A stretch of 64,000 nucleotides of DNA from Bacillota bacterium (GTDB lineage: Bacteria; Bacillota; Dehalobacteriia; UBA4068). How positions within the stretch are numbered: the stretch's first letter is position 1; each line of letters opens with the position of its first letter. Below, piece by piece: positions 7,802-30,571 of this stretch. The stretch spans positions 197,942 through 261,941 of the forward strand of contig JBMNFI010000002.1 in assembly GCA_050949225.1 (NCBI GenBank), read 5' to 3'. The notes beneath the pieces were generated by a model that did no database searches, was not told the origin of the DNA, and saw only the letters and a program-made list of their open reading frames with translations. The translations under genes were made by a program, and so were the position numbers.

Positions 7802-7831
7802 TAAATGAAATATATATTAGTGGGTGATCTG

Positions 7832-15145: not shown

Positions 15146-15149
15146 GAAT

Positions 15150-15440
15150 ATGTTTGTAGTGATTGCTTATGATGTCAATACGGAAACGCGAGAGGGACGA
15201 AAAAGACTGCGGTTAGTGAGCAAAGCTTGCCAAAATTATGGTCAGCGTGTCCAAAATTCTTTATTTGAGTGTTTGATTGACTATGGGACTTTTTTAATTT
15301 TAAAAAAAGAGTTGGAAAGTATTGTTGATGAGGATTTAGACAGCCTGAGATATTATTATTTGGGCAACAAATGGCAAAAGAGAGTGGAGCATTTTGGTGC
15401 CAAAGGTGGCTATGATCCTGAGGGAACAATTATTATATAG
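15150..15440 (+). CDS. cas2: CRISPR-associated endoribonuclease Cas2
   Basis: Starts MFVVIAYDVNTETREGRKRLRLVSKACQNYGQRVQNSLFEC. The track ORF begins at an upstream alternative start, but the conserved Cas2 N-terminus starts at ATG 15150. Confidence 0.9.
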   Translation: MFVVIAYDVNTETREGRKRLRLVSKACQNYGQRVQNSLFECLIDYGTFLILKKELESIVDEDLDSLRYYYLGNKWQKRVEHFGAKGGYDPEGTIII

Positions 15441-15584
15441 GTTTGCGAACCATAAGTGACCATTTTTGGTTATTTTGTTGATACGGCTGTTTTTAGTGGC
15501 CTTTTGTTTTAAAGAGTTGTTATTGTTTTGTCCGCCCCATGCGGTAGATGTGATGAATAATGCCTGTCCAGGGCATTTTCTAGA

Positions 15585-16086
15585 GTCGCACCCCGCAGGG
15601 GGTGCGTGGATTGAAATACAAGTATTACCAGAGCTGGAAAGAAAGATTTTGTCGCACCCCGCAGGGGGTGCGTGGATTGAAATCGGAAACGGCAAAGCGT
15701 ATGACCCCGCCAAAAGTGTCGCACCCCGCAGGGGGTGCGTGGATTGAAATTCTTAACTGTCTGCACAACATTAAATAATCCAACCGTCGCACCCCGCAGG
15801 GGGTGCGTGGATTGAAATTTTCTGATTTTGTGAAACTTTTCGGGATTGGTCGGTCGCACCCCGCAGGGGGTGCGTGGATTGAAATCCGTTATACCATTTA
15901 TTACGTAAGTTTTAACAACGTCGCACCCCGCAGGGGGTGCGTGGATTGAAATCATCGATTAGCTCTGTGACGATAAAATTAAGCTGTCGCACCCCGCAGG
16001 GGGTGCGTGGATTGAAATAAAATTGTTGATAAGCTCTCCGTCATAGAGGGTTGGTCGCACCCCGCAGGGGGTGCGTGGATTGAAAT
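15585..16086 (+). CRISPR. CRISPR array, 8 direct repeats of 33 bp (GTCGCACCCCGCAGGGGGTGCGTGGATTGAAAT) with 7 spacers of 33-35 bp; leader about 144 bp on the cas2 side
   Basis: Repeats begin at 15585, 15651, 15718, 15786, 15853, 15920, 15986 and 16054, all identical. The repeat is a typical type I-C repeat. The last repeat is not degenerate. Confidence 0.97.
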
Positions 16087-16996
16087 TTAGTGCAACAGCA
16101 GCAATCATCTCTACCTCGCCTGTTTTGACTGCGCCGGCTGTACTGAAATCAGGGAGCCAAGTCTGAACAGGGGCAACGCCCGCCATGCTGACTGCATGGA
16201 ATCCATCAACCCCCATCCGTGCAAAATAGATAGAGCTTGTGCCGTCCACACCTGACGTACCGATGATATCATTGTTACTTCCGGGTTTTGCGCCAAGATC
16301 AATCAGGGGAATACCGTTATACATGGAAACGTTGTTGCCCCATTCATCACGTGTTTCCTGATATTTACCATGAACTTTGGCGAGATACTCAAGAGTGGAA
16401 ATCATGTCACCATTGCCCATAATTGCAGAAGGCTTCCCATCAAGCTTTCTTAAAGCTTTATTTAAGGCGAGAAGGAAAGCACCGCCATTTGTTTCAATGT
16501 TCGCCGCGGTGGAAAGGTCAATGATATTCCCGGCATTAAATTCGGTTGCAGATCCCAATAACGCGGAATCTAAGCCATCAAAGGCATTTGCATTGACTGC
16601 CGAATCACCATTGATCACAGTGTCGCAAAACAGAGCCGCTGCGGCTTTAATTTTTTGTTCCATTTGTAATGTTACTTCACTTATGATACCCCCCATGTCC
16701 GCGATAACGCGGTCAATCTGGAAAGAACCGCCGAAGACCTTTAAGTCGACAGTATAGCGCTGTTTACCAACTTCCTGCGGATTATACTCAGCGTTTACCG
16801 CACGAAAAGCCGCGGTGGGTTGTGTAACCAGGCGAGTATAACCATAAGTTAGCGTTGCGCCGCCACCGGTGGGGGAAACACAATCATCAAAAACCATGTT
16901 ATCAAGCAAAAAGGAGCTTTTGCGGAATTCGTCAATCACTCCCATTTGTAAATCATCCTGTACGTTTTTCTTAGCTTCTTGTAATGTTACTGGCAT
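15959..16996 (-). CDS. phage major capsid protein; only 16087..16996 is capsid-derived, and the 3' end of the ORF reads through CRISPR repeat 8 and spacers (gene truncated or fused by the array)
   Basis: About 300-aa Gly/Ala-rich capsid-like product directly downstream of a scaffold gene. The last 43 codons (..FNPRTPCGVRPT..ISIHAPPAGCD..) are translations of the CRISPR repeat. Confidence 0.6.
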   Translation of the reverse strand: MPVTLQEAKKNVQDDLQMGVIDEFRKSSFLLDNMVFDDCVSPTGGGATLTYGYTRLVTQPTAAFRAVNAEYNPQEVGKQRYTVDLKVFGGSFQIDRVIADMGGIISEVTLQMEQKIKAAAALFCDTVINGDSAVNANAFDGLDSALLGSATEFNAGNIIDLSTAANIETNGGAFLLALNKALRKLDGKPSAIMGNGDMISTLEYLAKVHGKYQETRDEWGNNVSMYNGIPLIDLGAKPGSNNDIIGTSGVDGTSSIYFARMGVDGFHAVSMAGVAPVQTWLPDFSTAGAVKTGEVEMIAAVALNFNPRTPCGVRPTLYDGELINNFISIHAPPAGCDSLILSSQS

Positions 16997-17022
16997 ATTA
17001 TTTCTTCCTTTCGTCTGTTAAA

Positions 17023-17631
17023 TTAATCAGAGCTATTACCGGGGAATAATTTCGCTTTTATTGATTCCTCCAGCCCCTCCGGCTTAGGCGGCTCTGTTCT
17101 TTGTGCCGGATCTTTTTCCTCTCCCGGCTTCATTCCTTTTGGGACTGCCGGCGTAGGATTATCGAATTTGAAACAAAAGTTCTTTTCCTCGTCTTTAGTT
17201 AACGCTGTGATTTGGTCGCCGAGACCGACAATCTCGCCTTCCTTAACTGTGGCAGTTTCTAAAAACTCTGCCAGATAGACCTTGACTACTTTAGGGTCTC
17301 GTGCACCGGCTTTCAGCAAAGCAGATTCTACAATGGCATTTTTTTGTACTGTTAGTAATTCAGCTGCCATGCGTTCAGCTTCAGCTTTGTTGTCTTCTTG
17401 CAGCTTCTTGATTTGCGCCTCCAGCTCTTTATTGTCCGTGTTGGACTTTTGGAGTTCTTTCAGCTGCTTATCACGCTCTGAGACAGTACCTTTGAGGGTG
17501 TCCCTCTCGGTAATCATCTCATCGAGTCGCGACTTCGGCACAAAGCCTTCCAGTGCTTTCTTGTGTTCTGCAACCACCTTGTCGGCTGTTGCATCGTCGA
17601 TGTTCAAACTGGTCAAAAACTCTTTTTTCAT
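17023..17631 (-). CDS. phage scaffolding protein
   Basis: 202 aa, acidic and coiled-coil rich (KELEAQIKKLQEDNKAEAERMAAELLTVQ). Position is between the head-morphogenesis and capsid genes. Confidence 0.65.
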   Translation of the reverse strand: MKKEFLTSLNIDDATADKVVAEHKKALEGFVPKSRLDEMITERDTLKGTVSERDKQLKELQKSNTDNKELEAQIKKLQEDNKAEAERMAAELLTVQKNAIVESALLKAGARDPKVVKVYLAEFLETATVKEGEIVGLGDQITALTKDEEKNFCFKFDNPTPAVPKGMKPGEEKDPAQRTEPPKPEGLEESIKAKLFPGNSSD

Positions 17632-17815
17632 CTCGATTCTTCCTTTCTTTCAAAACATTTTTTTCCCGGTTCAGTCCGGTATTATTGTCTTTTAGTTTTG
17701 CGCCTTAAAATACCAAAAAGGCGATTTTTTTTATAAAAAAAGAGCGCCTACGATAGTAGGTACTCTTAATGTTATATCTGGGTATGAAAAACCACCTCAA
17801 ACAATCAAGGTGGTT

Positions 17816-18043
17816 TTACGGCAACGCGTTAATTATGTCTTGATATTCAAAAGCCTTTTTTGTCATTTGTTGTTTTTCATCAAGGCAGCACCGCAACAAA
17901 TAATCAGATGCTTTTTCCTCTATATCAAGCAACTGTTTTTCGGAAAATTCATTATTAGCAGGACAATTAAAGCCTGCTTCTGCTAATAATTCTTGTTGTC
18001 TTTTACTAAAATCTACTTTCATTATCCTACTCTCCTTTTCCAT
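17816..18043 (-). CDS. small protein overlapping the 3' end of the MuF gene; candidate immunity protein for the MuF C-terminal domain
   Basis: 75-aa ORF overlapping the MuF stop by 17 nt. It is duplicated nearly identically at 25232..25459. Confidence 0.5.
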   Translation of the reverse strand: MEKESRIMKVDFSKRQQELLAEAGFNCPANNEFSEKQLLDIEEKASDYLLRCCLDEKQQMTKKAFEYQDIINALP

Positions 18044-19373
18044 ATTTTTTAATTCTACTTTTCCCGGTTTTCCATGTAGTAATCAGTGTTTTTGTTTCGG
18101 GGTTAACCGCTACTGTCGCCCTTTGCCCAATAAATTGAATAGAAGGCTTCCCTGAAGCATTAATACTAACCTCTGTTATGTGTAACGGGGTCTTTAAAGC
18201 CTCTATTGCGGCACTTACTTCAACAGCACGTTCCTCCCCTCGAGCTATCAAATGAGGGTTTATATGCTCTATAGTTAGTCCGTTCTGTGCTTCTACTCCT
18301 ATTATACCCTGCCAGTCGCTTTCTTTCAACACATAATTTTTATACCATTCTTGATAGGTCATATCGCCCTTAACATATTGTATCTCACCATCTGCACCTC
18401 TAGCTGCCCGCTCAAACTCTTTGCTGAACTCATCATCAAAGTGCGGACAAGTAGTGCCACGACAGCGTGTATGAAAGGGCGGCACAGTCACTCCGGGAGA
18501 ATAATCCGCCATCTTAACAACCTTGCCGTCCATCTCTTGACAAATGGTGCAAACGAGGTCGTCAAGCGTCTCGACAACCTCCACCGCCTCCACATCGAGC
18601 TCTTTATAAGCCTCCTTTTGGCCGGCAGCCACAAAGTACGTTGTTTCCGTATCTAAAAGGGCAGCGGCTCTGTGCTTTTTAACACCGAACTTTGCAGCAA
18701 AATCCTTAACACCAACATACGGCGTTTCACCAGTCATCAAGTTACGCATCAGCTGCGACTGCAAATCGCCAATAAGCGTCTGTTTATCGCGCCATATTCG
18801 ATCACTAAAATTCAGGCCATCAACCGCCCAAGGCGTTTTGATCAAGCGGTTAATCGCCGCCACATCAAGCGGCGAGATTGACCAGACTGCCCCAACACCT
18901 TTTTGAACATTAAAAGCCGTCCGATAGTATGTATCATCTAAAATCTTACGCAATACTTCATCTGTTAGGGCGTATTCCCTAGCATATAAAACCTCAACAG
19001 CCTGCTGCATCTCAATTTTGAGAGCCTCTAAGCGCGAGATATGAACACGAGCTGCAGCGTTTTCCAGCTGCTGAATCCATTTGCCATTGACTTCTGCCTC
19101 TTGTCCTCTGGCAATGTATTCTTCAAGCGTCCATTTAAATTCTTTTAATTCACCGGCAGAAAGTCTTTTATGCGCTTCAGCCAATGGAATTTTATTATTT
19201 TTAGCAAATTGCGTATACCAACGAGAGATTTTATCATCAACCATGTGCATCGCCCTTGTATACTCTTTATTTATCTCTTCCAGCGCAAGAGAAGCAGTTT
19301 GGTGGGCATCTCTGGCAACGTCCTCTGATCGTTTGGTCCAATAAGCCGCACTCCGCTTGAGTAACTCTGTCAT
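18027..19373 (-). CDS. phage head morphogenesis protein, SPP1 gp7 / Mu F family, with a C-terminal extension
   Basis: MuF-family motif ..CTICQEMDGKVV...PPFHTRCRGTTCP. Sits downstream of the portal gene. About 100 C-terminal residues extend beyond the MuF core. Confidence 0.8.
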   Translation of the reverse strand: MTELLKRSAAYWTKRSEDVARDAHQTASLALEEINKEYTRAMHMVDDKISRWYTQFAKNNKIPLAEAHKRLSAGELKEFKWTLEEYIARGQEAEVNGKWIQQLENAAARVHISRLEALKIEMQQAVEVLYAREYALTDEVLRKILDDTYYRTAFNVQKGVGAVWSISPLDVAAINRLIKTPWAVDGLNFSDRIWRDKQTLIGDLQSQLMRNLMTGETPYVGVKDFAAKFGVKKHRAAALLDTETTYFVAAGQKEAYKELDVEAVEVVETLDDLVCTICQEMDGKVVKMADYSPGVTVPPFHTRCRGTTCPHFDDEFSKEFERAARGADGEIQYVKGDMTYQEWYKNYVLKESDWQGIIGVEAQNGLTIEHINPHLIARGEERAVEVSAAIEALKTPLHITEVSINASGKPSIQFIGQRATVAVNPETKTLITTWKTGKSRIKKYGKGE

Positions 19374-19376
19374 CGG

Positions 19377-20885
19377 CTACTCACCTCTTTTGTCCGGCTC
19401 GTCTTCCTCTTTTGTGGAGCTCCAGTCAGTAGGGTAAGCGTCTTCCTCTCTAACTCTTTCAGCCTCAATGCGTTTCATCTCTTTTTCTACATCAGAAATC
19501 CACGGGTGATTACTGATTGCGGTTTCTTTCGATATTAAGGCAGTAGAATTGAGGCAGTTTGCGATAATTTCACTTTCATTGATCATAATGTCACGATTGA
19601 AAATGAAGTCGATCTTCTCGTTTTCAAAATCGCCCTTGCCTTTGGTAGCCAAATAGTTGTTAACAAACCACAATAGGCTCTCCATGGCTGCTTGGTATTC
19701 CGTTTCCATACCGTTTGCATCAAGATCAATGTCACTGTACATGCTCTGGATGTTCATCTGATTAGGGCTGCCGCCCATCATGCGATCATCTTTGGCATCA
19801 TAGCCCATGGCATTTTCGATAATAGCCTTTTTAAACATATCAACAATCGATTCATAGTTTTTAGCATTGACCTCGATGTGGATACTATCTAAACCACCTG
19901 ATTGACCATCAAAAGATTTAACCTTAACTGCACGATACTGCATCAAATTATGCCTAAACGTGCCCAGATCTTCGCCATCATAGTTCTTTAATACAAGAAT
20001 CGAGCTCTGGCCGTCTTCCTGCATAGCGTTTTGAAAATCCGACATCATCAAGTTTAACGAATCTTGTAAATTTTTAACTTTAACAATCAAAGGAATTTCT
20101 TTGGAGTTGTGCTTAAAAGGTATCAATGGCAAACGCTCCCAATGCACCCCTTGCTCTACCGTCCCCCTTCTGTCCTCAGCACTATTGTTAACGACTATAG
20201 AGGCATAGTGGCTAAAAGGGTTAAGGCTATCTGTGATAAGACGTTCTTCTTTATCGTCCCAATCATAATATTCAATACCTTTGAGCGTGTAAACTTCAAC
20301 TTTTTTCTTAATCTTTTCCTCAGTGCCCTCATACTCAATCACTTCATAAATACGAATGGCGTACTCAAGGTCTGTATGCTCTGCATCTTTCCAACTGGGG
20401 ATAATTTCCCAGGGCGAAAAACGCCTAAAAGCAAGCTCTGATTGTTCATCATAATAAACATACAACCAGGCTAAGCCGCAATTAAGCGAATCAGTGCCCA
20501 TACTCCGCAATAATTTGTGAAAACGCTTGTCAAACAGTTCAGATAAGGCCTCTTGATATTCCGCGCTTTCTGTATCAAGCGTTAAGACTTGGCCGACAAA
20601 ATAATTTGTTTTTTGATCAACCATTTTAGCATACTGGTTATGGACAGTACGATTATTGGGCAAGTTTTCTACCGGCTCCAACCTGCCACTTTTGCCAATG
20701 ACCGTACGTTTACGTTGTAAAATATCGTGCTCCCCACGATAATACTTTTCGCCGGTAAGCATAGTTTTGCGTGCTTTAGAGCTTAACCAATTCTTGATTT
20801 GCTGTTCAAGAATCTCTTTTTTGGTCAAGGCGGTTTTGGCATGCGCCTCTATTTTTCTATTAATAAGTTGCGTATCAGTTATCAT
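19377..20885 (-). CDS. phage portal protein (SPP1 gp6-like)
   Basis: 502 aa between TerL and the MuF protein, with typical portal size and composition. Acidic C-terminus. Confidence 0.8.
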   Translation of the reverse strand: MITDTQLINRKIEAHAKTALTKKEILEQQIKNWLSSKARKTMLTGEKYYRGEHDILQRKRTVIGKSGRLEPVENLPNNRTVHNQYAKMVDQKTNYFVGQVLTLDTESAEYQEALSELFDKRFHKLLRSMGTDSLNCGLAWLYVYYDEQSELAFRRFSPWEIIPSWKDAEHTDLEYAIRIYEVIEYEGTEEKIKKKVEVYTLKGIEYYDWDDKEERLITDSLNPFSHYASIVVNNSAEDRRGTVEQGVHWERLPLIPFKHNSKEIPLIVKVKNLQDSLNLMMSDFQNAMQEDGQSSILVLKNYDGEDLGTFRHNLMQYRAVKVKSFDGQSGGLDSIHIEVNAKNYESIVDMFKKAIIENAMGYDAKDDRMMGGSPNQMNIQSMYSDIDLDANGMETEYQAAMESLLWFVNNYLATKGKGDFENEKIDFIFNRDIMINESEIIANCLNSTALISKETAISNHPWISDVEKEMKRIEAERVREEDAYPTDWSSTKEEDEPDKRGE

Positions 20886-20900
20886 CTGATCACCTTTCTT

Positions 20901-22166
20901 TTAATCAAAGCTAAACAGTGACCCTTTGGCCAATTCTTCGAGGGCATATCTCATGGCGTCCATCAAATGGTTAAAATCATCTATTGGTCTGTTAAGGACA
21001 ACGCCCTCGCGGTTTGTATCCCAAATATAATTTGACAGCTCCATCACCGTGTTAGTGCAAGAGGGGTGCACGATAATTTTATAGCCCTGTACGTGTTGGA
21101 TGCCGTGCCTAATACTGTCAGGCCCTTTTCTTGCCGCCCTGATATGCGGAATGTCAGCATCCCTTAGCTCTTGTATTGACTTTGGCTCTGCGCTATCCGC
21201 GATAATTGTTTCTTTACGATAACCTTTGTTGATGATGTGCTCAGCAATCATTTGGTTTGTCAGTTGTTTTTTATAAAATTCATCGAAAACATAGATCTCT
21301 TTGGCTTTTTGATCAACCGCCATTGCAATAAATGCTGATGGGTCGTTGGTATAACCAAAGTCTAAGCCAAAAGTCGTCTTGAGGTACGGTCGCTTTTTGA
21401 GTAATTCTGCTATTTTAAAGTCGTGCTCTTCCCAATTGTCATAAATCAGACCTTCGGCAATGCCCCAATTCCCCAACCCCTCAACCTGATAGCGGCGCGG
21501 TTGGTTGATGCGCATTTCCTCAAAAACCTGTTTATCCGCCTCATCTAAAAATTCATTACACATAAAATTTGTTGTATCGGCAAAAATTAAGTCACTTTCT
21601 GTATCAAAAAACCGTTTTTTAATCCAATGCTTGTCCGACCATGGATTAAACGTCAGTGTCAGCTGTTTAAAATAGCCTTCCGGCACAATGCCGCGCAGCG
21701 AAGTGTCCAGTTTGTTAAAATCAGCCTCATTCATAATCTGGAAGGCCTCTTCAATCCAAAACCAACACAATACGCCTTTATCAACGGTGATTGAGGTGAT
21801 GCTCTGCGGGTCATCCATGCCGCGAAACAGAATCTTTTGACCTGTTGGCTTGTATCTAATTTCCATAGGGTTTTTACTAAACCCCCAAGCATCCGCCGCC
21901 CCTAAACGATTAATCGCCCAAATTAACTGGGCGAAGGTTGAGTCTTTATGGGTGTTGAAATACCGTCGGACAACCAGCAGATTTGCTTCTGGGTATTTCA
22001 TCAGGTTATATATACACCAAAGGGCAGTCGTACAGCTTTTCTTACTGCCACGACCACCTTTTAGTACTCTATATCGTACTTTTGAGTGCCAAAACGAGGA
22101 ATACCCTCTGCCGATAACGCTCGGTAAGTGAATCCTAGGACGCTCAATCCTCGAGTTCATTTTCAC
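20901..22166 (-). CDS. terL: phage terminase large subunit (PBSX/terminase_6-like)
   Basis: N-terminal Walker A (KGGRGSKKS), ATPase followed by a nuclease domain with conserved acidic residues. 23-nt overlap with terS. Confidence 0.88.
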   Translation of the reverse strand: MKMNSRIERPRIHLPSVIGRGYSSFWHSKVRYRVLKGGRGSKKSCTTALWCIYNLMKYPEANLLVVRRYFNTHKDSTFAQLIWAINRLGAADAWGFSKNPMEIRYKPTGQKILFRGMDDPQSITSITVDKGVLCWFWIEEAFQIMNEADFNKLDTSLRGIVPEGYFKQLTLTFNPWSDKHWIKKRFFDTESDLIFADTTNFMCNEFLDEADKQVFEEMRINQPRRYQVEGLGNWGIAEGLIYDNWEEHDFKIAELLKKRPYLKTTFGLDFGYTNDPSAFIAMAVDQKAKEIYVFDEFYKKQLTNQMIAEHIINKGYRKETIIADSAEPKSIQELRDADIPHIRAARKGPDSIRHGIQHVQGYKIIVHPSCTNTVMELSNYIWDTNREGVVLNRPIDDFNHLMDAMRYALEELAKGSLFSFD

Positions 22167-22638
22167 CTTCGAAAACAGGCATTGTAATATTTATATTAGA
22201 CGTTGTAGCCCACATATCGTGGTATTTGCCGATCAATTCAAGCGCTTTATTGGCATCGGCAGTCTTGTTTGGCACTTCAACAACTTCGGCAGTCTGCCTT
22301 TCAGTAGTAATCTTTCGTCCTTTGCTGTTATAATCGCTGTCTTTGTGGGTCAATGTAACAACGACACTCTCCATATCTTTACGACGGCCTATGTTCGTCA
22401 GGCGCATCAAAATCTCTGATACGCCGGCAACACATTCGTCCTCTACTTTGGACATTAATTCATTTTTATAATCAATGATATGCGGCATTTGCAACAAATT
22501 GCAAGTCGTGACAGCAAGAGATCGAGGCTTACCTTTATAACCTGCATCTCTTGCGGCTTTTTCCCTATCCAAACCGTTAGCCACATAGTTTTGAACAAAC
22601 AGCTTTTGTTGATCAGTTATTTGTTTCTTTTTAATCAC
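22144..22638 (-). CDS. terS: phage terminase small subunit (HTH DNA-binding)
   Basis: 164 aa. N-terminal HTH region (QQKLFVQNYVANGLDREKAARDAGYKG) is typical of TerS. Immediately upstream of terL. Confidence 0.7.
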   Translation of the reverse strand: MIKKKQITDQQKLFVQNYVANGLDREKAARDAGYKGKPRSLAVTTCNLLQMPHIIDYKNELMSKVEDECVAGVSEILMRLTNIGRRKDMESVVVTLTHKDSDYNSKGRKITTERQTAEVVEVPNKTADANKALELIGKYHDMWATTSNINITMPVFEGENELED

Positions 22639-22655
22639 TTAAAATCACTTCCTTT

Positions 22656-23225
22656 TTACGCCGTTCTGCGCCACATGTAACATGTGATATATGGCGGTAA
22701 ATTGCCGCTGTTTCCTGAACCGGAGTAGCCCGTGTTGCCTGTTACTGGGTGGTCGTGTTTGGCATCAATTGCTATTCTGTCGGCATTACGTGCTGCTGTT
22801 TTTATTTCCACATTGGAATTCAAACTGATTCCGCCCTGCACATCATACGACAGTATCCCCGACGAATGGACAGGAAAACCTTGTGATCCACCTGTTAAGG
22901 TCCTGATATCGATCGTACCTGATAAGGCTTTTTCTGATGTTGTCAATGTTCCGTTATCATGTCTGTGGCTGTCTAGATACTTACTACCGCCTGTCTTTTG
23001 TGGGGTATTAAACTCTGCTTGTGTCGTATCCACCCCCACAGGCACTCTACCCGTTCCCCATGCGACCCATGTTCCACCCAATAGACTGCCTGGATTGGTT
23101 GCATTTACAGACATATATATTGCTCCTACGGGGTATGCTTTGTCTATATTAAAAGACTTACCATCGACATAGGCTTTGATTTTTTGCCAAAGATACAGTA
23201 ATCCATTATTGTCTAAAATTTTCAT
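22656..23225 (-). CDS. phage tail-fibre / receptor-binding-like protein (paralogue of 23239..23817)
   Basis: Start ATG 23225 preceded by AGGCGGTGG. Its N-terminus MKILDNNGLLYLWQKIKAYVD is shared with the upstream paralogue while the C-terminus is divergent and Gly/Thr/Ser-rich. Confidence 0.5.
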   Translation of the reverse strand: MKILDNNGLLYLWQKIKAYVDGKSFNIDKAYPVGAIYMSVNATNPGSLLGGTWVAWGTGRVPVGVDTTQAEFNTPQKTGGSKYLDSHRHDNGTLTTSEKALSGTIDIRTLTGGSQGFPVHSSGILSYDVQGGISLNSNVEIKTAARNADRIAIDAKHDHPVTGNTGYSGSGNSGNLPPYITCYMWRRTA

Positions 23226-23238
23226 TTTATGCCACCGC

Positions 23239-23817
23239 CTAACTGGCCATGATGGTATCGATTTCAGCATTTGTAATTGCCGCCAAATCATTAAACGTGA
23301 CATAGTCTGTCAAATCAACATCCGTTGAACCGATTTTCTCGTACGCTGATAAATCTGTCAGCCAAATATATTCATCGTAGCTGCCTCCGGAATTAGCCAC
23401 CAGATAAATTATGCCTTTCACTCCTTGTGTGGGCAAGGTCGCAACAATCTGAAAATCAATGCTTGTGATCCCCGACAAGGCGCTATTAATCGCTGTCTGC
23501 ACTTGGCTAGAGGTTTGATATCCCGCCCCATTTGTCAGCTGGTTGTTATTTGTTGGGATTTGATTAGCTGCCGCAATCCCAAGACCCGCTTTTGTTAAAG
23601 TGCCAGTGATTGTTGTGCCGTCAAGAGTTGGCTTGTTGACAATGGTTGTATAATCCGGCGCATTGATTAATCCAAGCAGTGCGTCGGTTAAGTCATTAGT
23701 TGACAGCCCCATATTTTCTACTTTATCAACTTTACTGTTAATTAAACTTTTGAGTTTTTGATTGTAGTATAATAGCCCGTTTTCATCCAAATATTTTTTA
23801 GGTGTCATGTTTTTCAC
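23239..23817 (-). CDS. phage tail-fibre / receptor-binding-like protein
   Basis: Conserved N-terminal KKYLDENGLLYYNQKLKSL followed by a Thr/Gly/Asn-rich variable region, as in siphovirus fibre proteins. Confidence 0.5.
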   Translation of the reverse strand: MKNMTPKKYLDENGLLYYNQKLKSLINSKVDKVENMGLSTNDLTDALLGLINAPDYTTIVNKPTLDGTTITGTLTKAGLGIAAANQIPTNNNQLTNGAGYQTSSQVQTAINSALSGITSIDFQIVATLPTQGVKGIIYLVANSGGSYDEYIWLTDLSAYEKIGSTDVDLTDYVTFNDLAAITNAEIDTIMAS

Positions 23818-23820
23818 TCC

Positions 23821-24075
23821 TTAAAATTGATTATTAATAATTTCTTCAATCTCCATATTTGTCAAACTGTCTTCCGCTAAATTCCGATTACCCTTCAAGG
23901 CAACCGCATTAATTGACGGTAGGTTTTCCAGCTCGTTATAGTCACTTGTCATAATGTATTCTGTGACTATATCGCTGTCCAAAACCAGCGAACTCTCACT
24001 CTGCCCGGACAGATCAATGACAAAATCCTCTTCTTCTGCTAATTTTATTTTTTCATCCATAACGCACCACCTCAT
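23821..24075 (-). CDS. hypothetical small acidic protein (phage-associated)
   Basis: 84-aa ORF, first gene pair of the leftward operon, 4-nt overlap with the upstream ORF. Confidence 0.4.
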   Translation of the reverse strand: MRWCVMDEKIKLAEEEDFVIDLSGQSESSLVLDSDIVTEYIMTSDYNELENLPSINAVALKGNRNLAEDSLTNMEIEEIINNQF

Positions 24076-24281
24076 TCATTCTCTGCAAACGTGATCTCCG
24101 GCAGAATTTCTAACTCCCCCAAAACCGTCTGCTTATAGGTTGGGTTAGCCCTATATAACTGGATATCAAAATAATATTTGCCAAAATGAAGGCTGTCCGT
24201 CTCTTCCGGCAAAATAACAAAGTGGTAACGACCTTCTTCGTCCTTTGTTATCTCATTTCGGCTGAGGCGTTTTTGAAACAA
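24072..24281 (-). CDS. hypothetical small protein (phage-associated)
   Basis: 69-aa ORF, translationally coupled with 23821..24075. Confidence 0.4.
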   Translation of the reverse strand: MFQKRLSRNEITKDEEGRYHFVILPEETDSLHFGKYYFDIQLYRANPTYKQTVLGELEILPEITFAENE

Positions 24282-24287
24282 AAAATC

Positions 24288-24316
24288 TTGACTACACGTG
24301 TTACACGTGTTATTCT
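24288..24316 (+). promoter_or_regulatory. putative hicAB promoter with a tandem ACACGTGTT operator-like direct repeat in the spacer
   Basis: TTGACT (-35), then ACACGTGTTACACGTGT in a 17-bp spacer, then TATTCT (-10), about 25 nt upstream of the hicA ATG. Confidence 0.35.
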
Positions 24317-24341
24317 ATGTATAGAGCGAAGGTGCTAACAA

Positions 24342-24506
24342 ATGAAATTCCGGGAACTCGAAAAGATCATAAAAGCGGATGGCTGGGAGCATATTAAGAC
24401 AGTAGGATCATATCACCAGTACAAGCACCCAGCAAAACCCGGAAAGGTTACGATACCGTACTCAAACAAAGATTTAAAATTAAACACCATAAATAGAAAG
24501 GACTGA
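24342..24506 (+). CDS. hicA: type II toxin HicA (mRNA interferase), 54 aa; not in the ORF track because it is under 60 aa
   Basis: Translation MKFRELEKIIKADGWEHIKTVGSYHQYKHPAKPGKVTIPYSNKDLKLNTINRKD matches the HicA consensus (ELxKLLxxDGW..xGSHHxxKHPxxPG.VTVP). Sits immediately upstream of hicB. Confidence 0.75.
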   Translation: MKFRELEKIIKADGWEHIKTVGSYHQYKHPAKPGKVTIPYSNKDLKLNTINRKD

Positions 24507-24511
24507 ACAAT

Positions 24512-24913
24512 ATGAAACTTATATATCCTGCCTGCCTTTATCCTTGTGAAGAGGGTGGTTACACTGTGGTCTTTCCTGATCTGCCCGGTTGTGTAACTGA
24601 AGGGGATACTTTAGAAGATGCCCTTGATATGGCCGCTGATGCTGCCTGTGGTTGGATACTAGGAGAGACTGAGGATGACAATCCTTTCCCCTCTGCCTCA
24701 GATATCAAAGGTATAATAGCAGATGAATACAAAGAAGGATTTACTTCCCTTATCCCTCTGGACATGGAGAAATACGCTAAAAACCATAGCAATAAGTCTG
24801 TTAATAAAACTTTAACTATACCGGCTTGGTTAAATACTGCTGCAGAAAAAGAGAATGTCAACTTCTCTCAGGTACTGCAAGAGGCACTAGCCAAAAAGCT
24901 TGACGCTATGTAA
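24512..24913 (+). CDS. hicB: type II antitoxin HicB
   Basis: N-terminus LIYPACLYPCEEGGYTVVFPDLPGCVTEGDTLEDALDMA is the HicB/UPF0150 RNase-H-like fold signature. C-terminal RHH-like DNA-binding tail. Confidence 0.85.
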   Translation: MKLIYPACLYPCEEGGYTVVFPDLPGCVTEGDTLEDALDMAADAACGWILGETEDDNPFPSASDIKGIIADEYKEGFTSLIPLDMEKYAKNHSNKSVNKTLTIPAWLNTAAEKENVNFSQVLQEALAKKLDAM

Positions 24914-24922
24914 AACAATATA

Positions 24923-25022
24923 GTCGCACCCCGCAGGGGGTGCGTGGATTGAAATAATTTGATCGCTTGGGTTCGTCGGCGATTGAGCTGTCGCACCCTG
25001 CAGGGGGTGCGTGGATTGAAAT
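24923..25022 (+). CRISPR. CRISPR mini-array: 2 repeats and 1 spacer (34 bp). The second repeat is degenerate (C to T at position 10), as expected for a trailer-end repeat
   Basis: Repeat at 24923..24955 is identical to the main-array repeat. The repeat at 24990..25022 has one mismatch. Same orientation as the main array 8.8 kb upstream. Confidence 0.9.
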
Positions 25023-25510
25023 TTTACAGTGGTGTTTTTTTCTACCGTTAGTAATTCAGCTGCCATGCGTTCAGCTTCTTGATTTGTGCCTCCGGCTCTA
25101 TTGTCTTTTGGTTTAACGTCTCAAAATACCAAAACGGCGATTTTTTATATAAAAAAGGAGCGCCTACGATTATAGGTACTCTTAATGTTATATCTGGGTA
25201 TGAAAAACCACCTCAAATAATCAAGGTGGTTTTACGGCAGCGCGTTAATTATGTATTTATATTCAAAAGCCTTTTTTGTCATTTGTTGTTTTTCATCAAG
25301 ACAGCACCGCAGCAAATAATCAGATGCTTTTTCCTCTATATCAAGCAACTGCTTTTCGGAAAACTCATTATTAGCAGGACAATTAAAGCCCGCTTCTGCT
25401 AATAATTCTTGCTGTCTTTTACTAAAATCTACTTTCATTATCCTACTCTCCTTTTCCATATTTTTTAATTCTACTTTTTCCGGTTTTCCATGTAGTAATT
25501 AGTGTTTTTA
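25023..25510. repeat. partial direct duplicate (with internal deletions) of 17345..18110: internal scaffold fragment, junction and small ORF
   Basis: Long near-identical stretches shared with 17352-17382, 17408-17428 and 17690-18110, for example CTCTTAATGTTATATCTGGGTATGAAAAACCACCTCAAA..AATCAAGGTGGTTTTACGGCA. Confidence 0.8.
25232..25459 (-). CDS. second copy of the 75-aa small protein (candidate immunity protein), now orphaned
   Basis: 73 of 75 residues identical to 17816..18043. The upstream MuF gene is absent except for its last few dozen nucleotides. Confidence 0.5.
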   Translation of the reverse strand: MEKESRIMKVDFSKRQQELLAEAGFNCPANNEFSEKQLLDIEEKASDYLLRCCLDEKQQMTKKAFEYKYIINALP

Positions 25511-25562
25511 TTATGAAAATCTATGAAAAAAACCACCCTGTTGTGGGGTGGCTTAATCGCTA

Positions 25563-25808
25563 TTAGTTTTCAAAATAGGGGTTTATATCTACTTGAGATC
25601 TAATTTCTACGCCATAATGCGCGGCATTTAAGACATTAACTTCTTTGCCATTAAGCAAATAGGATTGGATCTGAGAGCCGTCAACATCTTCCAAGTAATC
25701 ATTTTTTATTAACGCAGGTATATTTCTTTCGAGAGCAGCGCACTGCCTCTTGAAAATATCTTCGTCAAAAACATTACAAATCACATATTCATAATTGTAT
25801 TTATACAT
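25563..25808 (-). CDS. small paralogous protein A (about 80 aa), candidate orphan immunity protein
   Basis: Paralogue of 26348..26587 and 27399..27641 (shared ..C.VFD.DIF..QC.ALE.NIP.L...DY..DVD.SQIQ.Y.LN.K.V.VLN....GVE..S.VD..PYFEN). Followed by a hairpin and T-run terminator at about 25527-25553. Confidence 0.5.
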   Translation of the reverse strand: MYKYNYEYVICNVFDEDIFKRQCAALERNIPALIKNDYLEDVDGSQIQSYLLNGKEVNVLNAAHYGVEIRSQVDINPYFEN

Positions 25809-25882
25809 TTGCTAGCCCTCCTGTTTATACTTTCGATAATTTTCGTGGATGATCTATAAAGTGGTTTTAGCTAATATTCGTT

Positions 25883-26279
25883 TTAAATGGCTAAATAATT
25901 CAATGCAAAATGATATCTATCTAGACGTTTCAAATCTTTTTTTAGTCACTTCTGATAATCTAGAAAGATCAGAATTATGTCTAAGGTCTGCAATTTTCAC
26001 TTTTTTTGCTAAAGGATTATTCTTTACTCTCTTCAGGTATTCAGTATAACCTTCTCTTTTGCACTTTGTAATAATTGTTACAGCTTCTATAATTTCTTGA
26101 CAAAAGCCAGCTTCAATAAGTTGTTCTTTTGTGTAATCGCTGTCTTATAAAACATCATGCGAAAGGGCAACGATCTTTTCTTTTTCTGTGTAGACCATTG
26201 CAGCGACTGTTAAAGGGTGGTTGATATACTCGTTTCCTCCCTTGTCTTTTTGACCTTTATGTGCTTTTTGAGCAATCAT
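25883..26279 (-). pseudogene. decayed small HD-domain protein resembling a RelA/SpoT-type (p)ppGpp hydrolase (small alarmone hydrolase-like); in-frame TAA plus a +1 frameshift
   Basis: Minus-strand translation MIAQKAHKGQKDKGGNEYINHPLTVAAMVYTEKEKIVALSHDVL*DSDYTKEQLIEAGFCQEIIEAVTIITKCKREGYTEYLKRVKNNPLAKKVKIADLRHN.. matches the RSH hydrolase N-terminus (H..GQ.R.sGEPYi.HPl.VA..l....D...i.AALLHDvvEDT....eei...FG..Va.lV.gvTK...). The TAA at 26145-26147 replaces the conserved Glu, and the frame shifts at the A7 run 25937-25943. Confidence 0.5.
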
Positions 26280-26347
26280 CAAAGCCTTCGCCAACAAGTT
26301 TACGCGCCTCGCTTTCGGTATTAATCCATAAAATGGTTTAATCGCTA

Positions 26348-26587
26348 TTAGTTTTCAAAATATGGTAACAGATCTACTTCGGAATTTACTTCTACACCAA
26401 ATATGGGCGTATTTAAAACTCTGACCTTTTTATCATTGAGCCAGTATATTTGAATTTGAGAGCTATCTACATCAACAGCATAGTCGCCCTTTTTTAATTC
26501 TGGTATATTCTTTTCAAGAGCAGTACACTGTTCCTGAAAAATATCAGAATCAAATACCTGACAAATAAAATATTCATGTTTGAACAT
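26348..26587 (-). CDS. small paralogous protein B (79 aa), candidate immunity protein for the upstream 154-aa domain
   Basis: Paralogue of 25563..25808 and 27399..27641. Starts 3 nt after the stop of 26590..27054. Confidence 0.5.
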   Translation of the reverse strand: MFKHEYFICQVFDSDIFQEQCTALEKNIPELKKGDYAVDVDSSQIQIYWLNDKKVRVLNTPIFGVEVNSEVDLLPYFEN

Positions 26588-26589
26588 TG

Positions 26590-27054
26590 TTAGCCCTCCA
26601 ATCCAAGTAATTTATTGATTTCTTTGTTTGACCGTGTAGAACTGTCGATTAAAGCCCTATAAAGATCATCGTCTGATTTATACAGGCTCCTGTATTTATC
26701 AACGTAAAAACTAAATTCCCGCAGAGGTGCATCTCTCACCAATCTTTCCAGTTCTTTCATGTCAATCATCATGTCCCTTGCTTGCTGCTTAAAGGTGTTT
26801 CTCAGTTCATGCGCCTGCATAGCCTGATCTTTTAGAGATAGTGTGCCGTCTAACATTGACGGAATTTTCTTATTGTGGGCTATGTACCAAGATCTTACTT
26901 CATAATTACCCAACATTCGATCAAATTTCAGCGAATAGTCCAAAGTATCAAGTCTATTTTGCTTACCGGCTTTTAACGCTTTCCATTTGTCAATTTCATT
27001 ATACTTTAAATATTGAAAATCCACAAGATTATTTGTATGCTTAATCCTAATCAA
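26590..27054 (-). CDS. orphan copy of the C-terminal domain found on the MuF-domain protein 27638..28732 (candidate orphan toxin-CT module)
   Basis: 154 aa, homologous over its length to the last ~150 residues of 27638..28732 (for example QAMQAHELRNTFKQQARDMMIDMKE vs QARQAYSLRNQYKEEARNLMADMAE, and SSTRSNKEINKLLG vs TATKSNEKVNKEVG). Confidence 0.5.
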   Translation of the reverse strand: MIRIKHTNNLVDFQYLKYNEIDKWKALKAGKQNRLDTLDYSLKFDRMLGNYEVRSWYIAHNKKIPSMLDGTLSLKDQAMQAHELRNTFKQQARDMMIDMKELERLVRDAPLREFSFYVDKYRSLYKSDDDLYRALIDSSTRSNKEINKLLGLEG

Positions 27055-27129
27055 AAAGACGATGAATATTTGTTAATCTATGTATTATAGTTCACTATAA
27101 TGCACTTTTTGTGCCTGCTTTTTTGACTG

Positions 27130-27240
27130 TTATCCAGTATCAGCCTTCAAAACTTCAATGCCCTTACCATATTCCGCCATAATTTTGTCAATGATATCCT
27201 TGTCATCAATGCCCAAACTTTCTAAAAATTCACGTTTCAT
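27130..27240 (-). pseudogene. fragment of a phage scaffold gene (first ~36 codons only)
   Basis: Minus-strand ORF MKREFLESLGIDDKDIIDKIMAEYGKGIEVLKADTG* parallels the scaffold N-terminus MKKEFLTSLNIDDATADKVVAEHKKALEGF of 17023..17631. Same position relative to a MuF plus small-ORF pair. Confidence 0.4.
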
Positions 27241-27398
27241 TTGATGTTTCCTTTCCTTCCGCTACGCTTTTTATCGGGGTTGCGCCCCGTGCGGCTGCAT
27301 CTTTTACGCTGTGCCCAGCAATATTTTTATATAAAAAAGACACTATGAACAATGTCAAAGTGTCTTAATTCATATTTAGTTGTTGCTATCAGTTGGCT

Positions 27399-27641
27399 TT
27401 AGTGCTTAATAAGCAGGTCGTCAAGTGGGTACGTGGATTTTACATACACCGCATCTACCAATGTGTCCATATAGATATCGATTTTTTCATTGTTTGCCGT
27501 AATATAAACAGCAATCAAAGAGCCATCCACATCTTCAAGCAGATCTTTCTTGACAGTAAAAGCCTTCTCAATTACTTTACATTGTGCATCAAAAACAGTT
27601 TTATCCACTTCTTTTGCGATAGTATAATCGTATTTCATCAT
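27399..27641 (-). CDS. small paralogous protein C (80 aa), candidate immunity protein for the C-terminal domain of 27638..28732
   Basis: ATGA overlap with the upstream MuF-domain gene. Paralogue of 25563..25808 and 26348..26587. Confidence 0.5.
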   Translation of the reverse strand: MMKYDYTIAKEVDKTVFDAQCKVIEKAFTVKKDLLEDVDGSLIAVYITANNEKIDIYMDTLVDAVYVKSTYPLDDLLIKH

Positions 27642-28732
27642 TTGTAACCCACCTCCTTGTTCACTTTTTCGTTAGACTTTGTCGCGGTCTTAATAATGTC
27701 TTTTAAGGCTTCTTCTCGTGTTAGCCCCTTACGCTCAATCTTATCATTAAGCAAATAATCAAAATCTGGAGCGGGGCTCTTGGCATCAAGCTTCGCCCTT
27801 TCTGCCATATCGGCCATCAGGTTGCGAGCCTCTTCTTTGTATTGGTTGCGCAAGGAATATGCTTGCCTTGCCTGTTTTTCTAGGCTCTGGGCGGTATCTA
27901 CTTGAGACGGAATAGACTTAATATGCTCATCATACCACTGTCTAACAGCTAGATTGCTTGCCTTGATATTGTTCGCCGCAAGTTCCTGATACTCCATTTT
28001 GGCGAATATATCACGGCCTGCCTTATCTAAAGCTATTATACCACTTTTAGCAGACAATTCCAAGTTCTGGACCCCGGCTCTTTCGCGGAAATAGTCACGA
28101 CTTAAGCCGGTTTGACTGATAAAATCTCTTTGCCTTGCTTGCCATTCTCGCACCTTGCCTTTAGCAAAGCTGTTGTCTAGTCCTGCTGCGTCATAAGCGC
28201 TGCCCTCACGCTTCCAGCGTCTTATTTGGCGCTCAATATAGCGTTGATGTTGAGTAGCATCATAAAGGCTCATCTTTTCGCCGTTGAAAGTGACTTCTCG
28301 ATTGTTGAGATCTCGCAAGCGGTCAGCATCATAGGCCTTTTCGTCTAGGCCTTCGACAAAGGGAAACCAGTCATGGCGACAATTTGCGCCTTTAAATCCT
28401 GTTACATCACCATAACCTATATCATCTAAAGATAGATAGCCATCTCTGCCTGATATACTCACCAGCTGCCCTTGCCATACTGCATGGCTTGGTCGAGCTG
28501 AATGATGAGCCGTCAATTCCATTAAGTCCGTATCCATCTCTTTGGCTCTGGCCAGCTGCAAATCTCCCGCTGTCTGGTTCACACCAGTCATAATTGCTCT
28601 TCTTGCAGCCACATCCAAGTAATCAGTATGTCCACCGGGATATGTGATAGATGCCAGCCCCTTAACAGTTAGGTCTCTAATCGCTCCTTTAACTGCCGTC
28701 CGGTAATCAAAAGCACCAGAGATGATTTGCAT
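27638..28732 (-). CDS. MuF (SPP1 gp7)-domain protein with a ~150-aa C-terminal extension; candidate MuF polymorphic toxin, detached from any portal or terminase genes
   Basis: MuF core motifs HHSARPSHAVWQGQLVSISG and KGANCRHDWFPF parallel the motifs in 18027..19373. The C-terminal ~150 aa are paralogous to 26590..27054. Confidence 0.55.
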   Translation of the reverse strand: MQIISGAFDYRTAVKGAIRDLTVKGLASITYPGGHTDYLDVAARRAIMTGVNQTAGDLQLARAKEMDTDLMELTAHHSARPSHAVWQGQLVSISGRDGYLSLDDIGYGDVTGFKGANCRHDWFPFVEGLDEKAYDADRLRDLNNREVTFNGEKMSLYDATQHQRYIERQIRRWKREGSAYDAAGLDNSFAKGKVREWQARQRDFISQTGLSRDYFRERAGVQNLELSAKSGIIALDKAGRDIFAKMEYQELAANNIKASNLAVRQWYDEHIKSIPSQVDTAQSLEKQARQAYSLRNQYKEEARNLMADMAERAKLDAKSPAPDFDYLLNDKIERKGLTREEALKDIIKTATKSNEKVNKEVGYK

Positions 28733-28910
28733 AATTTATGAATTCGAGATGTGTACTAAATACCTTTGATGTGATAGTATCCTGCAGTTCTGTATTTTGT
28801 ACTTTGCATGGATTATACAGATCAAACGAGAAAACCGTGGACAATTAACAGACTGAGGGATTTTTATGGTATCAGTGTCTCCAAAAACTATCCTTTAGTC
28901 TTCGTTAAAG

Positions 28911-28952
28911 GCTAGCGGACTTCTCCTTAAGGAGAAGTCCGCTAGCTTTTTT
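28911..28952. terminator. strong hairpin terminator (GCTAGCGGACTTCTCC-TTAA-GGAGAAGTCCGCTAGC followed by a T-run) between the phage-remnant block and hcp
   Basis: 16-bp perfect stem, 4-nt loop, T6 downstream on the plus strand and A-run on the other side. Possibly bidirectional. Confidence 0.45.
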
Positions 28953-28996: not shown

Positions 28997-30571
28997 TTAG
29001 CTTAATATTTTCTCCAGATCACTTTCAGGATCGGAAATAGGAGTCAGTTCGAAATTTTTCACTAAATAATCAAGAATATTGGGTGAGACAAAAGCAGGCA
29101 AAGAGGGACCGAGATAGATATTTTTGATACCCAAATGTAAAAGGGTTAACAAAATTGCCACTGCTTTTTGTTCATACCAGGATAAAACCAAAGTTAAAGG
29201 CAGTTCATTAACGCTGCAATCAAAGGCCTCTGACAGGGCTAAAGCTACTTTAATAGCGCCATAGGCATCGTTGCATTGTCCCATATCCATGATCCGTGGC
29301 AGTCCGCCAATTTCACCAATATCCAAATCGTTAAAGCGATATTTGCCGCAAGCCAAGGTTAGAATCACGGTATCCGCCGGGGTTTTTTTCACAAAGTCAG
29401 TATAGTAGTTGCGGCCCGTTCTGGCTCCGTCACAACCGCCCACGAGGAAGAAGTGTTTGATGGCCCCTGCTTTAACTGCATCAATTACTGTGTCGGCAAC
29501 TGATAAAATGGTGCCATGGGCAAAACCGGTTGTAACAGTATTGCCACCATTAATGCCGGATCCAGGATGTTTTGTGGGGTAACCGCCAAGTTCCAGAGCT
29601 TTTTCAATTACAGGGGTAAAATCTTTTTTATCATCAATATGCGCTATTTCCGGATAGCCCACCATCGCCGTGGTGAAAACGCGATCTTTGTAGCTATCTT
29701 TAGGTGGCATAATACAGTTTGTGGTGAATAAAATAGGTGCGGGGATATTGTCAAACTCTTTTTTCTGGTTTTGCCAAGCGGTACCAAAATTGCCTTTAAA
29801 ATGAGAATATTGTTTCAGTTTTGGATAACCGTGTGCAGGCAGCATTTCACCATGAGTATAAATATTAATGCCTTTGCCTTTAGTTTGTTCCAGAAGTTTG
29901 TGTAAATCAAGCAGGTCGTGACCGGTGATAACAATAAAGGGACCGGGCTCAACATCTAATGATACAGTCGTTGGTTCAGGAGTGCCATAGGTTTCAGTAT
30001 TGGCCTTATCTAACAGTTCCATGCAGGCTAAGTTGGCGGCGCCTGTTTCCATTACTGCAGGCAAAAGGGATTCGAGAGTATTTTCTGATTCAATAATGTA
30101 AAGTCCCTTATAGAAGAAATCGGTGACTGTTTTATCGGTATAACCGAGCTCCAAAGCGTGATAGGCATAGGCTGCCATGCCACGTAGACCTAACAAAATA
30201 AGGGTTTTTAACGAACGGATATCTTCATTATCCTGCCAAACCGTATTCATGTCAAAACCACAATCGACAGGGGCACCCAGCAATTTCTCCTGAGCTTGTT
30301 TAACCTCAGCAATAGTTTGTTGAAGATCATCATTGCTAAAGTTAACATTAGTTACCGTAGTAAAAAGACCTTTCATAATTAGTCGGTCGGTTTCGGCATC
30401 GGGCTTATTTTGTGCGGGATTTTTAAACTTGATTTTAGCAAGCATAATCAAGTTGCCGGTCAGCTCATCCTGCAGACGAGCGGTATCAGCCTGTTTCCCG
30501 CAGACGCCTTGGCTTTTTGTACAGCCTGTACCACCTGCAGTTTGTTCACATTGAAAACAAAACATAGTCAT
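28997..30571 (-). CDS. hcp: hybrid-cluster protein (hydroxylamine reductase / prismane protein)
   Basis: N-terminus MTMFCFQCEQTAGGTGCTKSQGVCGK is the Hcp Cys motif. 524 aa. RBS AGGAGG 8 nt upstream. Confidence 0.93.
   Translation of the reverse strand: MTMFCFQCEQTAGGTGCTKSQGVCGKQADTARLQDELTGNLIMLAKIKFKNPAQNKPDAETDRLIMKGLFTTVTNVNFSNDDLQQTIAEVKQAQEKLLGAPVDCGFDMNTVWQDNEDIRSLKTLILLGLRGMAAYAYHALELGYTDKTVTDFFYKGLYIIESENTLESLLPAVMETGAANLACMELLDKANTETYGTPEPTTVSLDVEPGPFIVITGHDLLDLHKLLEQTKGKGINIYTHGEMLPAHGYPKLKQYSHFKGNFGTAWQNQKKEFDNIPAPILFTTNCIMPPKDSYKDRVFTTAMVGYPEIAHIDDKKDFTPVIEKALELGGYPTKHPGSGINGGNTVTTGFAHGTILSVADTVIDAVKAGAIKHFFLVGGCDGARTGRNYYTDFVKKTPADTVILTLACGKYRFNDLDIGEIGGLPRIMDMGQCNDAYGAIKVALALSEAFDCSVNELPLTLVLSWYEQKAVAILLTLLHLGIKNIYLGPSLPAFVSPNILDYLVKNFELTPISDPESDLEKILS

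Follow-up and report, generated by a model that had tools for sequence, protein, structure and literature searches.

A detached repeat-spacer-repeat unit between two phage remnants, probably the displaced trailer end of a type I-C CRISPR array

The subject of this study is a detached unit of two CRISPR repeats and one spacer, located at 24923..25022 of a 64,000-nt stretch of DNA (the window) from a Bacillota bacterium (assembly GCA_050949225.1, contig JBMNFI010000002.1, positions 197,942 to 261,941). The unit lies downstream of a type I-C array, from which it is separated by a fragment of phage DNA, and is followed by the remnant of a second phage. Read from the left, the locus opens with the cas operon (7805..15440, plus strand), which the open reading frames (ORFs) and Pfam profiles resolve into a split cas3, cas5c, cas8c/csd1, cas7/csd2, cas4, cas1 and cas2; the identical genes of the metagenome contig L001 matched Cas3-like_C_2/DEAD, Cas_Cas5d, Cas_Csd1, Cas_Cas7, Cas_Cas4, Cas_Cas1 and CRISPR_Cas2. 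The cas3 region (7805..10065) is seemingly divided into a 249-aa ORF without a Pfam match and an overlapping 516-aa helicase ORF. This full I-C gene set adjoins the main array, and the 144 nt between cas2 and the first repeat (15441..15584, plus strand), in which a terminator-like hairpin follows cas2 (15485..15501), are presumed from their position alone to be the leader.

The main array (15585..16086, plus strand), delineated by a repeat search, consists of eight mismatch-free copies of the 33-nt repeat GTCGCACCCCGCAGGGGGTGCGTGGATTGAAAT, which are spaced 66-68 nt apart and enclose seven spacers of 33-35 nt. Its last copy is as perfect as the others, as an earlier note on this DNA had stated. 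The next copy, repeat 9 (24923..24955, 33/33 identical), begins after an interval of 8,836 bp on the same strand and is followed by the 34-nt spacer AATTTGATCGCTTGGGTTCGTCGGCGATTGAGCT (24956..24989), whose length falls inside the range of the other seven, and by repeat 10 (24990..25022), the terminal one, which matches at 32/33 positions and carries a C>T change at 24999. The note had also described a detached two-repeat unit, 8.8 kb off, holding the only degenerate repeat, and every detail of that description was confirmed. The unit lies on the trailer side of the main array, opposite the cas2/leader end, and the sole variant repeat is the last one, at the leader-distal end. No further copy, degenerate ones included, was found elsewhere in the window. 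The copies are not a product of chance, since the 10-mer core of the repeat, with up to one mismatch allowed, has 12 matches where shuffling predicts 1.5. The folded repeat has an 8-bp stem, a 4-nt loop and an 11-nt 3' tail, UGGAUUGAAAU; in type I-C repeats, this tail becomes the 5' handle of the CRISPR RNA (crRNA). In repeat 10, the C-G pair that closes the loop becomes U.G, and the hairpin is kept (-15.0 versus -17.5 kcal/mol). Rfam returned no CRISPR-DR family above threshold. CRISPR finders would list the locus as one array plus an orphan mini-array.

What fills the interval between repeats 8 and 9 is phage DNA (fragment A, 8,836 bp, 16087..24922), recognized by Pfam, PHROG and GC skew; all of its genes except hicAB are on the minus strand, and its GC skew is negative, i.e., reversed. 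In the order of the window, the fragment begins with the major capsid gene (16088..16996), which ends after codon 303 as judged from its homologues, and an intact gene for a 202-aa scaffolding protein (17023..17631; PF06810, E=5.8e-36). These are followed by a 75-aa gene that lies downstream of MuF, encodes a candidate immunity protein (17816..18043) and has a near-identical paralogue at 25232..25459, and by intact genes for a MuF-like minor head protein (18027..19373; PF04233), an SPP1-type portal (19377..20885; PF05133), TerL (20901..22166; PF04466/PF17288) and TerS (22144..22638; PF03592). Beyond four phage accessory or tail-fibre-like genes (22656..24281; PHROG matches for all four, a Gp10_C domain, PF21939, in one), the fragment ends with a toxin-antitoxin pair on the plus strand (24342..24913; PF07927 and PF15919), composed of hicA (24342..24506) and hicB (24512..24913), which is transcribed toward the two-repeat unit and whose hicB stop codon stands 9 nt ahead of repeat 9. 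The nearest homologues of hicAB are only about 70% identical and apparently chromosomal, and an identical HicB protein is on record from an NCBI metagenome-assembled genome (MAG) named 'Bacillota bacterium'. All genes of the fragment are open, and neither the ORF list nor Pfam and PHROG searches of its ORFs revealed an integrase, replication, connector, tail or lysis gene. In the P0002 contigs, whose capsids are 88% identical, the capsid gene is followed by genes for connector, sheath, tube and tape measure (the contig of the 91% capsid relative, P0001, is short and holds the head genes alone). Because relatives carry tail genes after the capsid gene, fragment A is part of a phage genome: an incomplete piece of a myovirus-like one, without a recombinase.

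This fragment sits in a spacer slot, and both of its ends coincide with repeat borders. On the left, 16086 is the last base of repeat 8 and 16087 the first of capsid codon 304; on the right, the phage DNA ends at 24922 and repeat 9 starts at 24923. The capsid gene can be followed to residue 303 (…AAVAL), after which the frame passes directly into repeat 8. The homologues compared (Streptomyces phage Raleigh, Gordonia phage TinyDot, 19 IMG/VR relatives and six metagenomic relatives of 82-91% identity) all extend for 15 more residues, beginning with K-A/K/N-T-K/R; those of 318-325 aa read VAL-KAT(K/R)AAGVFRxLKI(A/V), and K304 is invariant in every capsid homologue inspected. As called, the capsid ORF of 345 aa (15959..16996) runs through repeat 8, spacer 7 and repeat 7. 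The last 42 residues of this 'capsid' are translated CRISPR repeats and spacer, an annotation artefact, as is a 148-aa ORF called within the array (15509..15955, minus strand).

No host trailer DNA directly follows repeat 10. The repeat ends at 25022, and homology to the scaffolding gene begins at 25021-25023, where a second, decayed piece of DNA from a related phage starts (remnant B, 25023..28732, minus strand; 90-95% identity to parts of A; right limit somewhere in 28733..28905). It contains a scaffold fragment with two internal deletions, the paralogue of the 75-aa gene, paralogues of 81, 79 and 80 aa, a 154-aa orphan module and a Phage_min_cap2 protein (PF06152) that covers profile positions 152-365 only, about 150 N-terminal residues being gone. 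Segment 25021..25078 is 90% identical to 17325..17382, in the middle of the scaffolding gene of A, and after two deletions relative to A, 25099..25509 is 94.6% identical to 17683..18093, the region of the 75-aa gene. Remnant B is far more decayed than fragment A, and its gene content indicates a different phage, the minor head protein being of the min_cap2 type in B and of the MuF type in A.

The small proteins of A and B (75, 81, 79 and 80 aa) have no PHROG match. In A (MuF, 448 aa) as in B (min_cap2, 364 aa), the minor head protein bears a variable C-terminal extension and is followed by small genes, and the C-terminus of the 154-aa ORF of B resembles that of the 364-aa protein, so that 17816..19373 and 25232..28732 look like a MuF-type polymorphic toxin/immunity cassette with orphan modules. 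The MuF/75-aa pair and hicAB may act as addiction-type modules and could help to keep the insert. Between the 80-aa and 154-aa ORFs of B, Rfam detects a GP20-b RNA motif (27263..27320, minus strand; 43.9 bits against a gathering threshold of 36.2). The first host gene past the phage remnants is hcp, encoding a hybrid-cluster protein (28997..30571, minus strand; PF03063), whose terminator is a perfect 36-nt palindrome, GCTAGCGGACTTCTCCTTAAGGAGAAGTCCGCTAGC (about 28906..28945). Three Logan contigs from different samples end at 28917, within this palindrome; they had suggested strain polymorphism at the border between B and hcp and were set aside as a k-mer graph artefact. A stretch at ~28775..28820 (CCTGCAG...GCATGGATT), considered as a residual repeat, scored 16, below the shuffle maxima of 23-29.5, and was likewise rejected.

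Several metagenome samples yielded at least five JGI contigs (L001/L020, of 308 kb, L005, L007, L008 and L022) in which, at 99.9-100% identity, the order of cas genes, eight repeats, fragment A, repeat-spacer-repeat, remnant B and hcp recurs, and parts of this order are also found in Logan contigs. The data come throughout from metagenome assemblies, and two of the contigs are readily seen as graph cycles via direct repeats, as would suit an assembly chimera in which the contig passes from the array into phage genomes via shared k-mers. Such a chimera is barely credible here: the identical path is found in the JGI contigs of several samples, one of them 308 kb long, the phage/repeat joints have no shared sequence long enough to merge paths, and the Logan contig L013 independently spans hicB, repeat 9, the spacer, repeat 10 and B. 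As for the two cyclic contigs, L009 (JGI Ga0591957_0019742, 7,415 bp) looks circular, closing via the 411-bp repeat of 94.6% identity (17683..18093 / 25099..25509); it differs in length by no more than 1 bp from the 7,416-bp spacing of that repeat and is probably an assembly cycle. Cycles of this kind arise in a de Bruijn graph from any pair of direct repeats, and neither contig is more than a weak hint of a real circle or tandem. In L011 (Logan SRR31066037_311580), 21409..24955 is fused to 16054..17382, which joins hicB to the capsid gene via one repeat copy and gives a capsid ORF of 319 aa, near the native 318-320 aa, ending in repeat-encoded residues. This joint matches an excised circle or a tandem copy of A and equally a k=31 graph cycle through the 33-nt direct repeat; the sample is apparently thinly covered, and we take the contig as a weak hint, a lead only.

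Because the unit shares the repeat, the strand and the spacer length of the main array, with the I-C operon upstream, we assign it to the host array. With moderate confidence, 24923..25022 can be read as the displaced original trailer end of the type I-C array, split by fragment A, with joining by an integrase as the favoured route. The note had offered such a split as one of its two readings, and its core stands: repeat, strand, spacer length, position on the trailer side, the terminal degenerate repeat and the foreign DNA in between all agree with a displaced trailer end. The note's picture of the insertion has to be revised, as the insert is a truncated, recombinase-less phage fragment that fills a spacer slot. 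So does its contiguous array of ten repeats, since the ancestor probably had nine, one of which was duplicated, or ten with one spacer replaced or extended. Its trailer end, too, is upheld by the degenerate last repeat, and yet it is a second phage remnant, not the host trailer, that starts at the end of this repeat. In the GTDB-representative set, the exact repeat occurs in one genome only, a Lachnospiraceae MAG from goat ileum (L019, JAFRGQ010000062.1), whose array likewise ends in degenerate repeats, two in number, adjoining an unrelated 1,172-aa gene. Its flank is unrelated and shows no synteny with the locus in the window; that a different Bacillota lineage has the exact repeat may be the result of a horizontal transfer of the I-C locus.

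The other reading in the note was that the element had brought its own repeat-spacer-repeat unit and used it to recombine into the host array. Such a phage-borne unit would be a superinfection-exclusion or anti-CRISPR device. Phage DNA does lie on either side of the unit, which is directly downstream of, and co-oriented with, a hicAB moron operon able to transcribe it, and viral mini-arrays typically have one spacer and a second repeat that is degenerate (PMC8616872). The flanks, however, come from two different truncated phages (MuF versus min_cap2, with 94.6% identity in the shared part), and a single crossover would give the present layout only if the capsid gene of the phage had already been truncated at a repeat. 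Viral mini-array spacers usually match related viruses; here, none of the eight spacers had a blastn match in INPHARED or any match in the window or in the fetched loci, those of capsid-related phages included. The 34-nt spacer itself, which the note had expected to be informative about its target, had no exact match in IMG/VR or in JGI metagenome contigs, a collection from which neither the exact-spacer nor the Cas1 search recovered the source population and in which no Cas1 relative was confirmed. The exact 33-nt repeat was found in 0 IMG/VR contigs and its 3' motif in 0/100 phage contigs related to A by capsid or TerL. A phage-borne origin of the unit is thus highly unlikely. A crRNA-like regulator (CreTA/crlRNA) was considered as well and rejected, the best matches of the spacer in the window being two chance 10-mers (61950 and 26927), with none of note near the cas genes.

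All three phage/repeat joints, two for A and one for B, coincide with a repeat border to within the 1-2 nt that both sides share. By our own estimate, breakpoints placed at random in the 67-bp repeat-spacer unit would give three border joints with a chance of roughly 1 in 10^4; since this is very unlikely, a border-specific process is implied. In native relatives, the 33 nt before the breakpoint match the repeat at 4-6 of 33 positions, which is the chance level and leaves no homology to guide a recombination (a 7/11 match between the native capsid 3' end and the repeat, considered as homology, lay one base out of register and was discarded). Insertion by a phage integrase within a repeat, as in PhiAP1.1, was rejected, since the ORFs include no integrase and the repeats on either side are complete, with the phage DNA joined to them at their borders. 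A Tn7-like transposon was rejected too: tnsA/B/C-type genes and transposon ends are absent, and the genes of the insert are all phage head, fibre or hicAB genes.

Apart from the Cas1-Cas2 integrase, no activity is known to us that cuts and joins DNA at both borders of a CRISPR repeat. We infer that the joints were made by a border-specific cut-and-join activity, and tentatively point to the Cas4-Cas1-Cas2 adaptation integrase acting aberrantly. The integrase would have performed its two half-site reactions on the ends of a long phage DNA instead of a 34-bp prespacer, at whichever repeat was then nearest the leader; remnant B would have entered first, followed by the 34-nt spacer, fragment A and finally the seven normal spacers. 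Aberrant Cas1-Cas2 joining would yield an extra repeat copy and arbitrary gene truncations, and would need no homology. If B is older and nearer the trailer, its more advanced decay is as expected. Pushed one step further, the adaptation machinery, or another border-specific activity, would have captured gene-sized phage DNA at this locus twice, as 'giant spacers', a possibility that we regard as somewhat doubtful. An intact, repeat-flanked cassette of head/packaging and toxin-antitoxin genes would have been left, which could then be lost, duplicated or moved by repeat-by-repeat recombination, and the hicB-repeat-capsid joint in L011 would be a product of such recombination.

Several observations weigh against joining by the adaptation integrase and the split of the host array that it would have caused. 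The protospacer-adjacent motif (PAM) of type I-C systems is TTC. The 3 nt before the breakpoint of A, which were inferred from relatives with 88-91% identical capsids and not read from phage A itself, are CTT (CTT or CCT across homologues), and Cas1-Cas2 integration would therefore have bypassed PAM selection by Cas4. We found no report in the literature of an insertion of kilobase DNA by Cas1-Cas2 in vivo. The recovered contigs are 99.9-100% identical and so represent one population; all of them carry the insert, none has the array in one piece, and phage A was not recovered in its native form. Shuffle-controlled scoring detected no repeat remnant at the right end of B, where a later deletion must be assumed. 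Moreover, solitary I-C-type repeats are frequent in viral contigs (of the first 120 matches listed, 82 are single, 17 double and 21 larger), and it is possible that phage A carried a repeat next to hicB.

This last point leads to homologous recombination from repeat to repeat, by which a phage A with a repeat or mini-array beside its hicAB moron would have entered the host array whole, most of the prophage being deleted later. Repeat-flanked gene cassettes do exist in phage genomes, as seen from two IMG/VR phage contigs (L145 358..986 and L197 1026..1635) in which segments of 565 bp and 546 bp with complete small genes lie between two identical I-C-type repeats; L197 also holds a spacer and a truncated repeat. 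Solitary repeats and mini-arrays of this type are abundant in IMG/VR contigs, and they have been proposed as a means of integration (Faure et al. 2019, cited after PMC8616872). The route accounts for the joint between hicB and repeat 9 and for the perfect flanking repeats. It nevertheless demands that the later deletion ended exactly at the 3' border of repeat 8, inside the capsid gene and without homology, and that the same coincidence occurred again for remnant B, while the exact repeat and its motif are missing from the IMG/VR contigs and the 100 relatives searched. We therefore consider it rather unlikely.

A further candidate is recombination between a spacer and its protospacer. Spacers since lost from behind repeats 8 and 10 would have matched the capsid and scaffolding genes, and recombination or single-strand annealing, possibly after Cas3 attack on an adjacent prophage, would have fused the array to the phage DNA downstream of the protospacers. 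Recombination of spacers with phage targets is reportedly documented in staphylococci, and it would explain why phage DNA starts right after the repeat at both left joints and why, at both, the PAM-distal side was kept with the same polarity. The PAM, however, speaks against it: CTT or CCT precedes the breakpoint of A at the invariant K304, and at the B breakpoint the paralogous sequence has GAT, its TTC being shifted by one base. Nor does this route explain the right joint of A, because there is no TTC 33-36 nt upstream of 24922 (the nearest is at 24863..24865). This route appears quite improbable, and some weight is left for causes beyond those considered here. Displacement of the host trailer end remains our preferred account of the unit.

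Separated from the leader by 8.8 kb of phage DNA, mostly antisense genes, the old spacer may still be expressed. A promoter-like site upstream of hicA (24288..24316) points into the unit and overlaps a perfect inverted repeat, ACACGTGT-T-ACACGTGT, which is a likely HicB operator; no plus-strand terminator was found between this site and 24923. A crRNA of the old spacer could therefore arise by read-through from hicAB and subsequent processing, the latter still being possible because both flanking hairpins are intact.

To our knowledge, phage DNA inside CRISPR arrays has so far come only from complete prophages that use their own integrase within the repeat, and from transposons. A recombinase-less fragment in a spacer slot, with a second fragment at the terminal repeat, is an unusual, new version of phage DNA in arrays that known insertion routes do not explain. 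If the adaptation integrase made the joints, Cas1-Cas2 can occasionally insert kilobases in vivo, which would tie present-day adaptation to a casposon-like ancestry and open a gene-capture route at arrays. If the capture of giant spacers is true, arrays would be entry points for kilobase foreign DNA, beyond 34-bp memories. If, instead, repeat-mediated recombination made the joints, the locus would be a natural example of the proposed entry of phage-borne repeats into host arrays.

Compared with known systems, the locus shares with canonical type I-C acquisition by Cas4-Cas1-Cas2 two perfect repeats that bound the insert exactly at their borders and a position that fits an old leader-proximal event. 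It departs from canonical acquisition in the length of the insert (8,836 bp versus 33-35 bp), in the motif (CTT, as inferred from relatives, instead of 5'-TTC) and in the intact genes carried. Casposons are likewise kilobase inserts (~10 kb), placed with a target-site duplication by a Cas1-family integrase; they encode, however, their own casposase and polymerase and have terminal inverted repeats, all of which are missing here, where the two ends of A have no relation to one another. Tn7-like transposons that target CRISPR repeats (PMC11837452) also place a mobile insert inside arrays, whereas the insert here is a phage head module without transposase genes or transposon ends.

A close parallel is the integration of PhiAP1.1-type prophages into the CRISPR repeats of Streptococcus pyogenes (Varble et al., bioRxiv 10.1101/2020.10.09.333658), where phage DNA likewise splits the array and severs the downstream spacers from the leader, and where cycles of integration and excision can move spacer-repeat units. 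There, the insert is a complete temperate phage whose integrase uses an 8-bp core inside the repeat, which is interrupted, in a type II-A system; here, a truncated gene fragment without an integrase is joined at repeat borders in a type I-C system, and no prophage was found in the I-C loci of S. pyogenes (bioRxiv 10.1101/2020.10.09.333658). Virus-borne mini-arrays and solitary repeat units (Faure et al. 2019; Medvedeva et al. 2019, PMC6858448; RNA anti-CRISPRs, PMC10651486), whose recombination with host arrays has been proposed (PMC8616872), resemble the unit in having one spacer between two host-like repeats, the second imperfect, among phage genes. What sets the present unit apart is a spacer for which no target in a virus was found, a repeat missing from every IMG/VR contig, and its co-linearity with the host array at a place between the remnants of two different phages. 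Finally, spacer-protospacer recombination (Varble et al. 2019, Nat Microbiol) reportedly gives similar hybrid joints of repeat-spacer and phage DNA directly after a repeat; it requires a phage-matching spacer, whereas here both breakpoints lack a I-C PAM and the right joint calls for another explanation.

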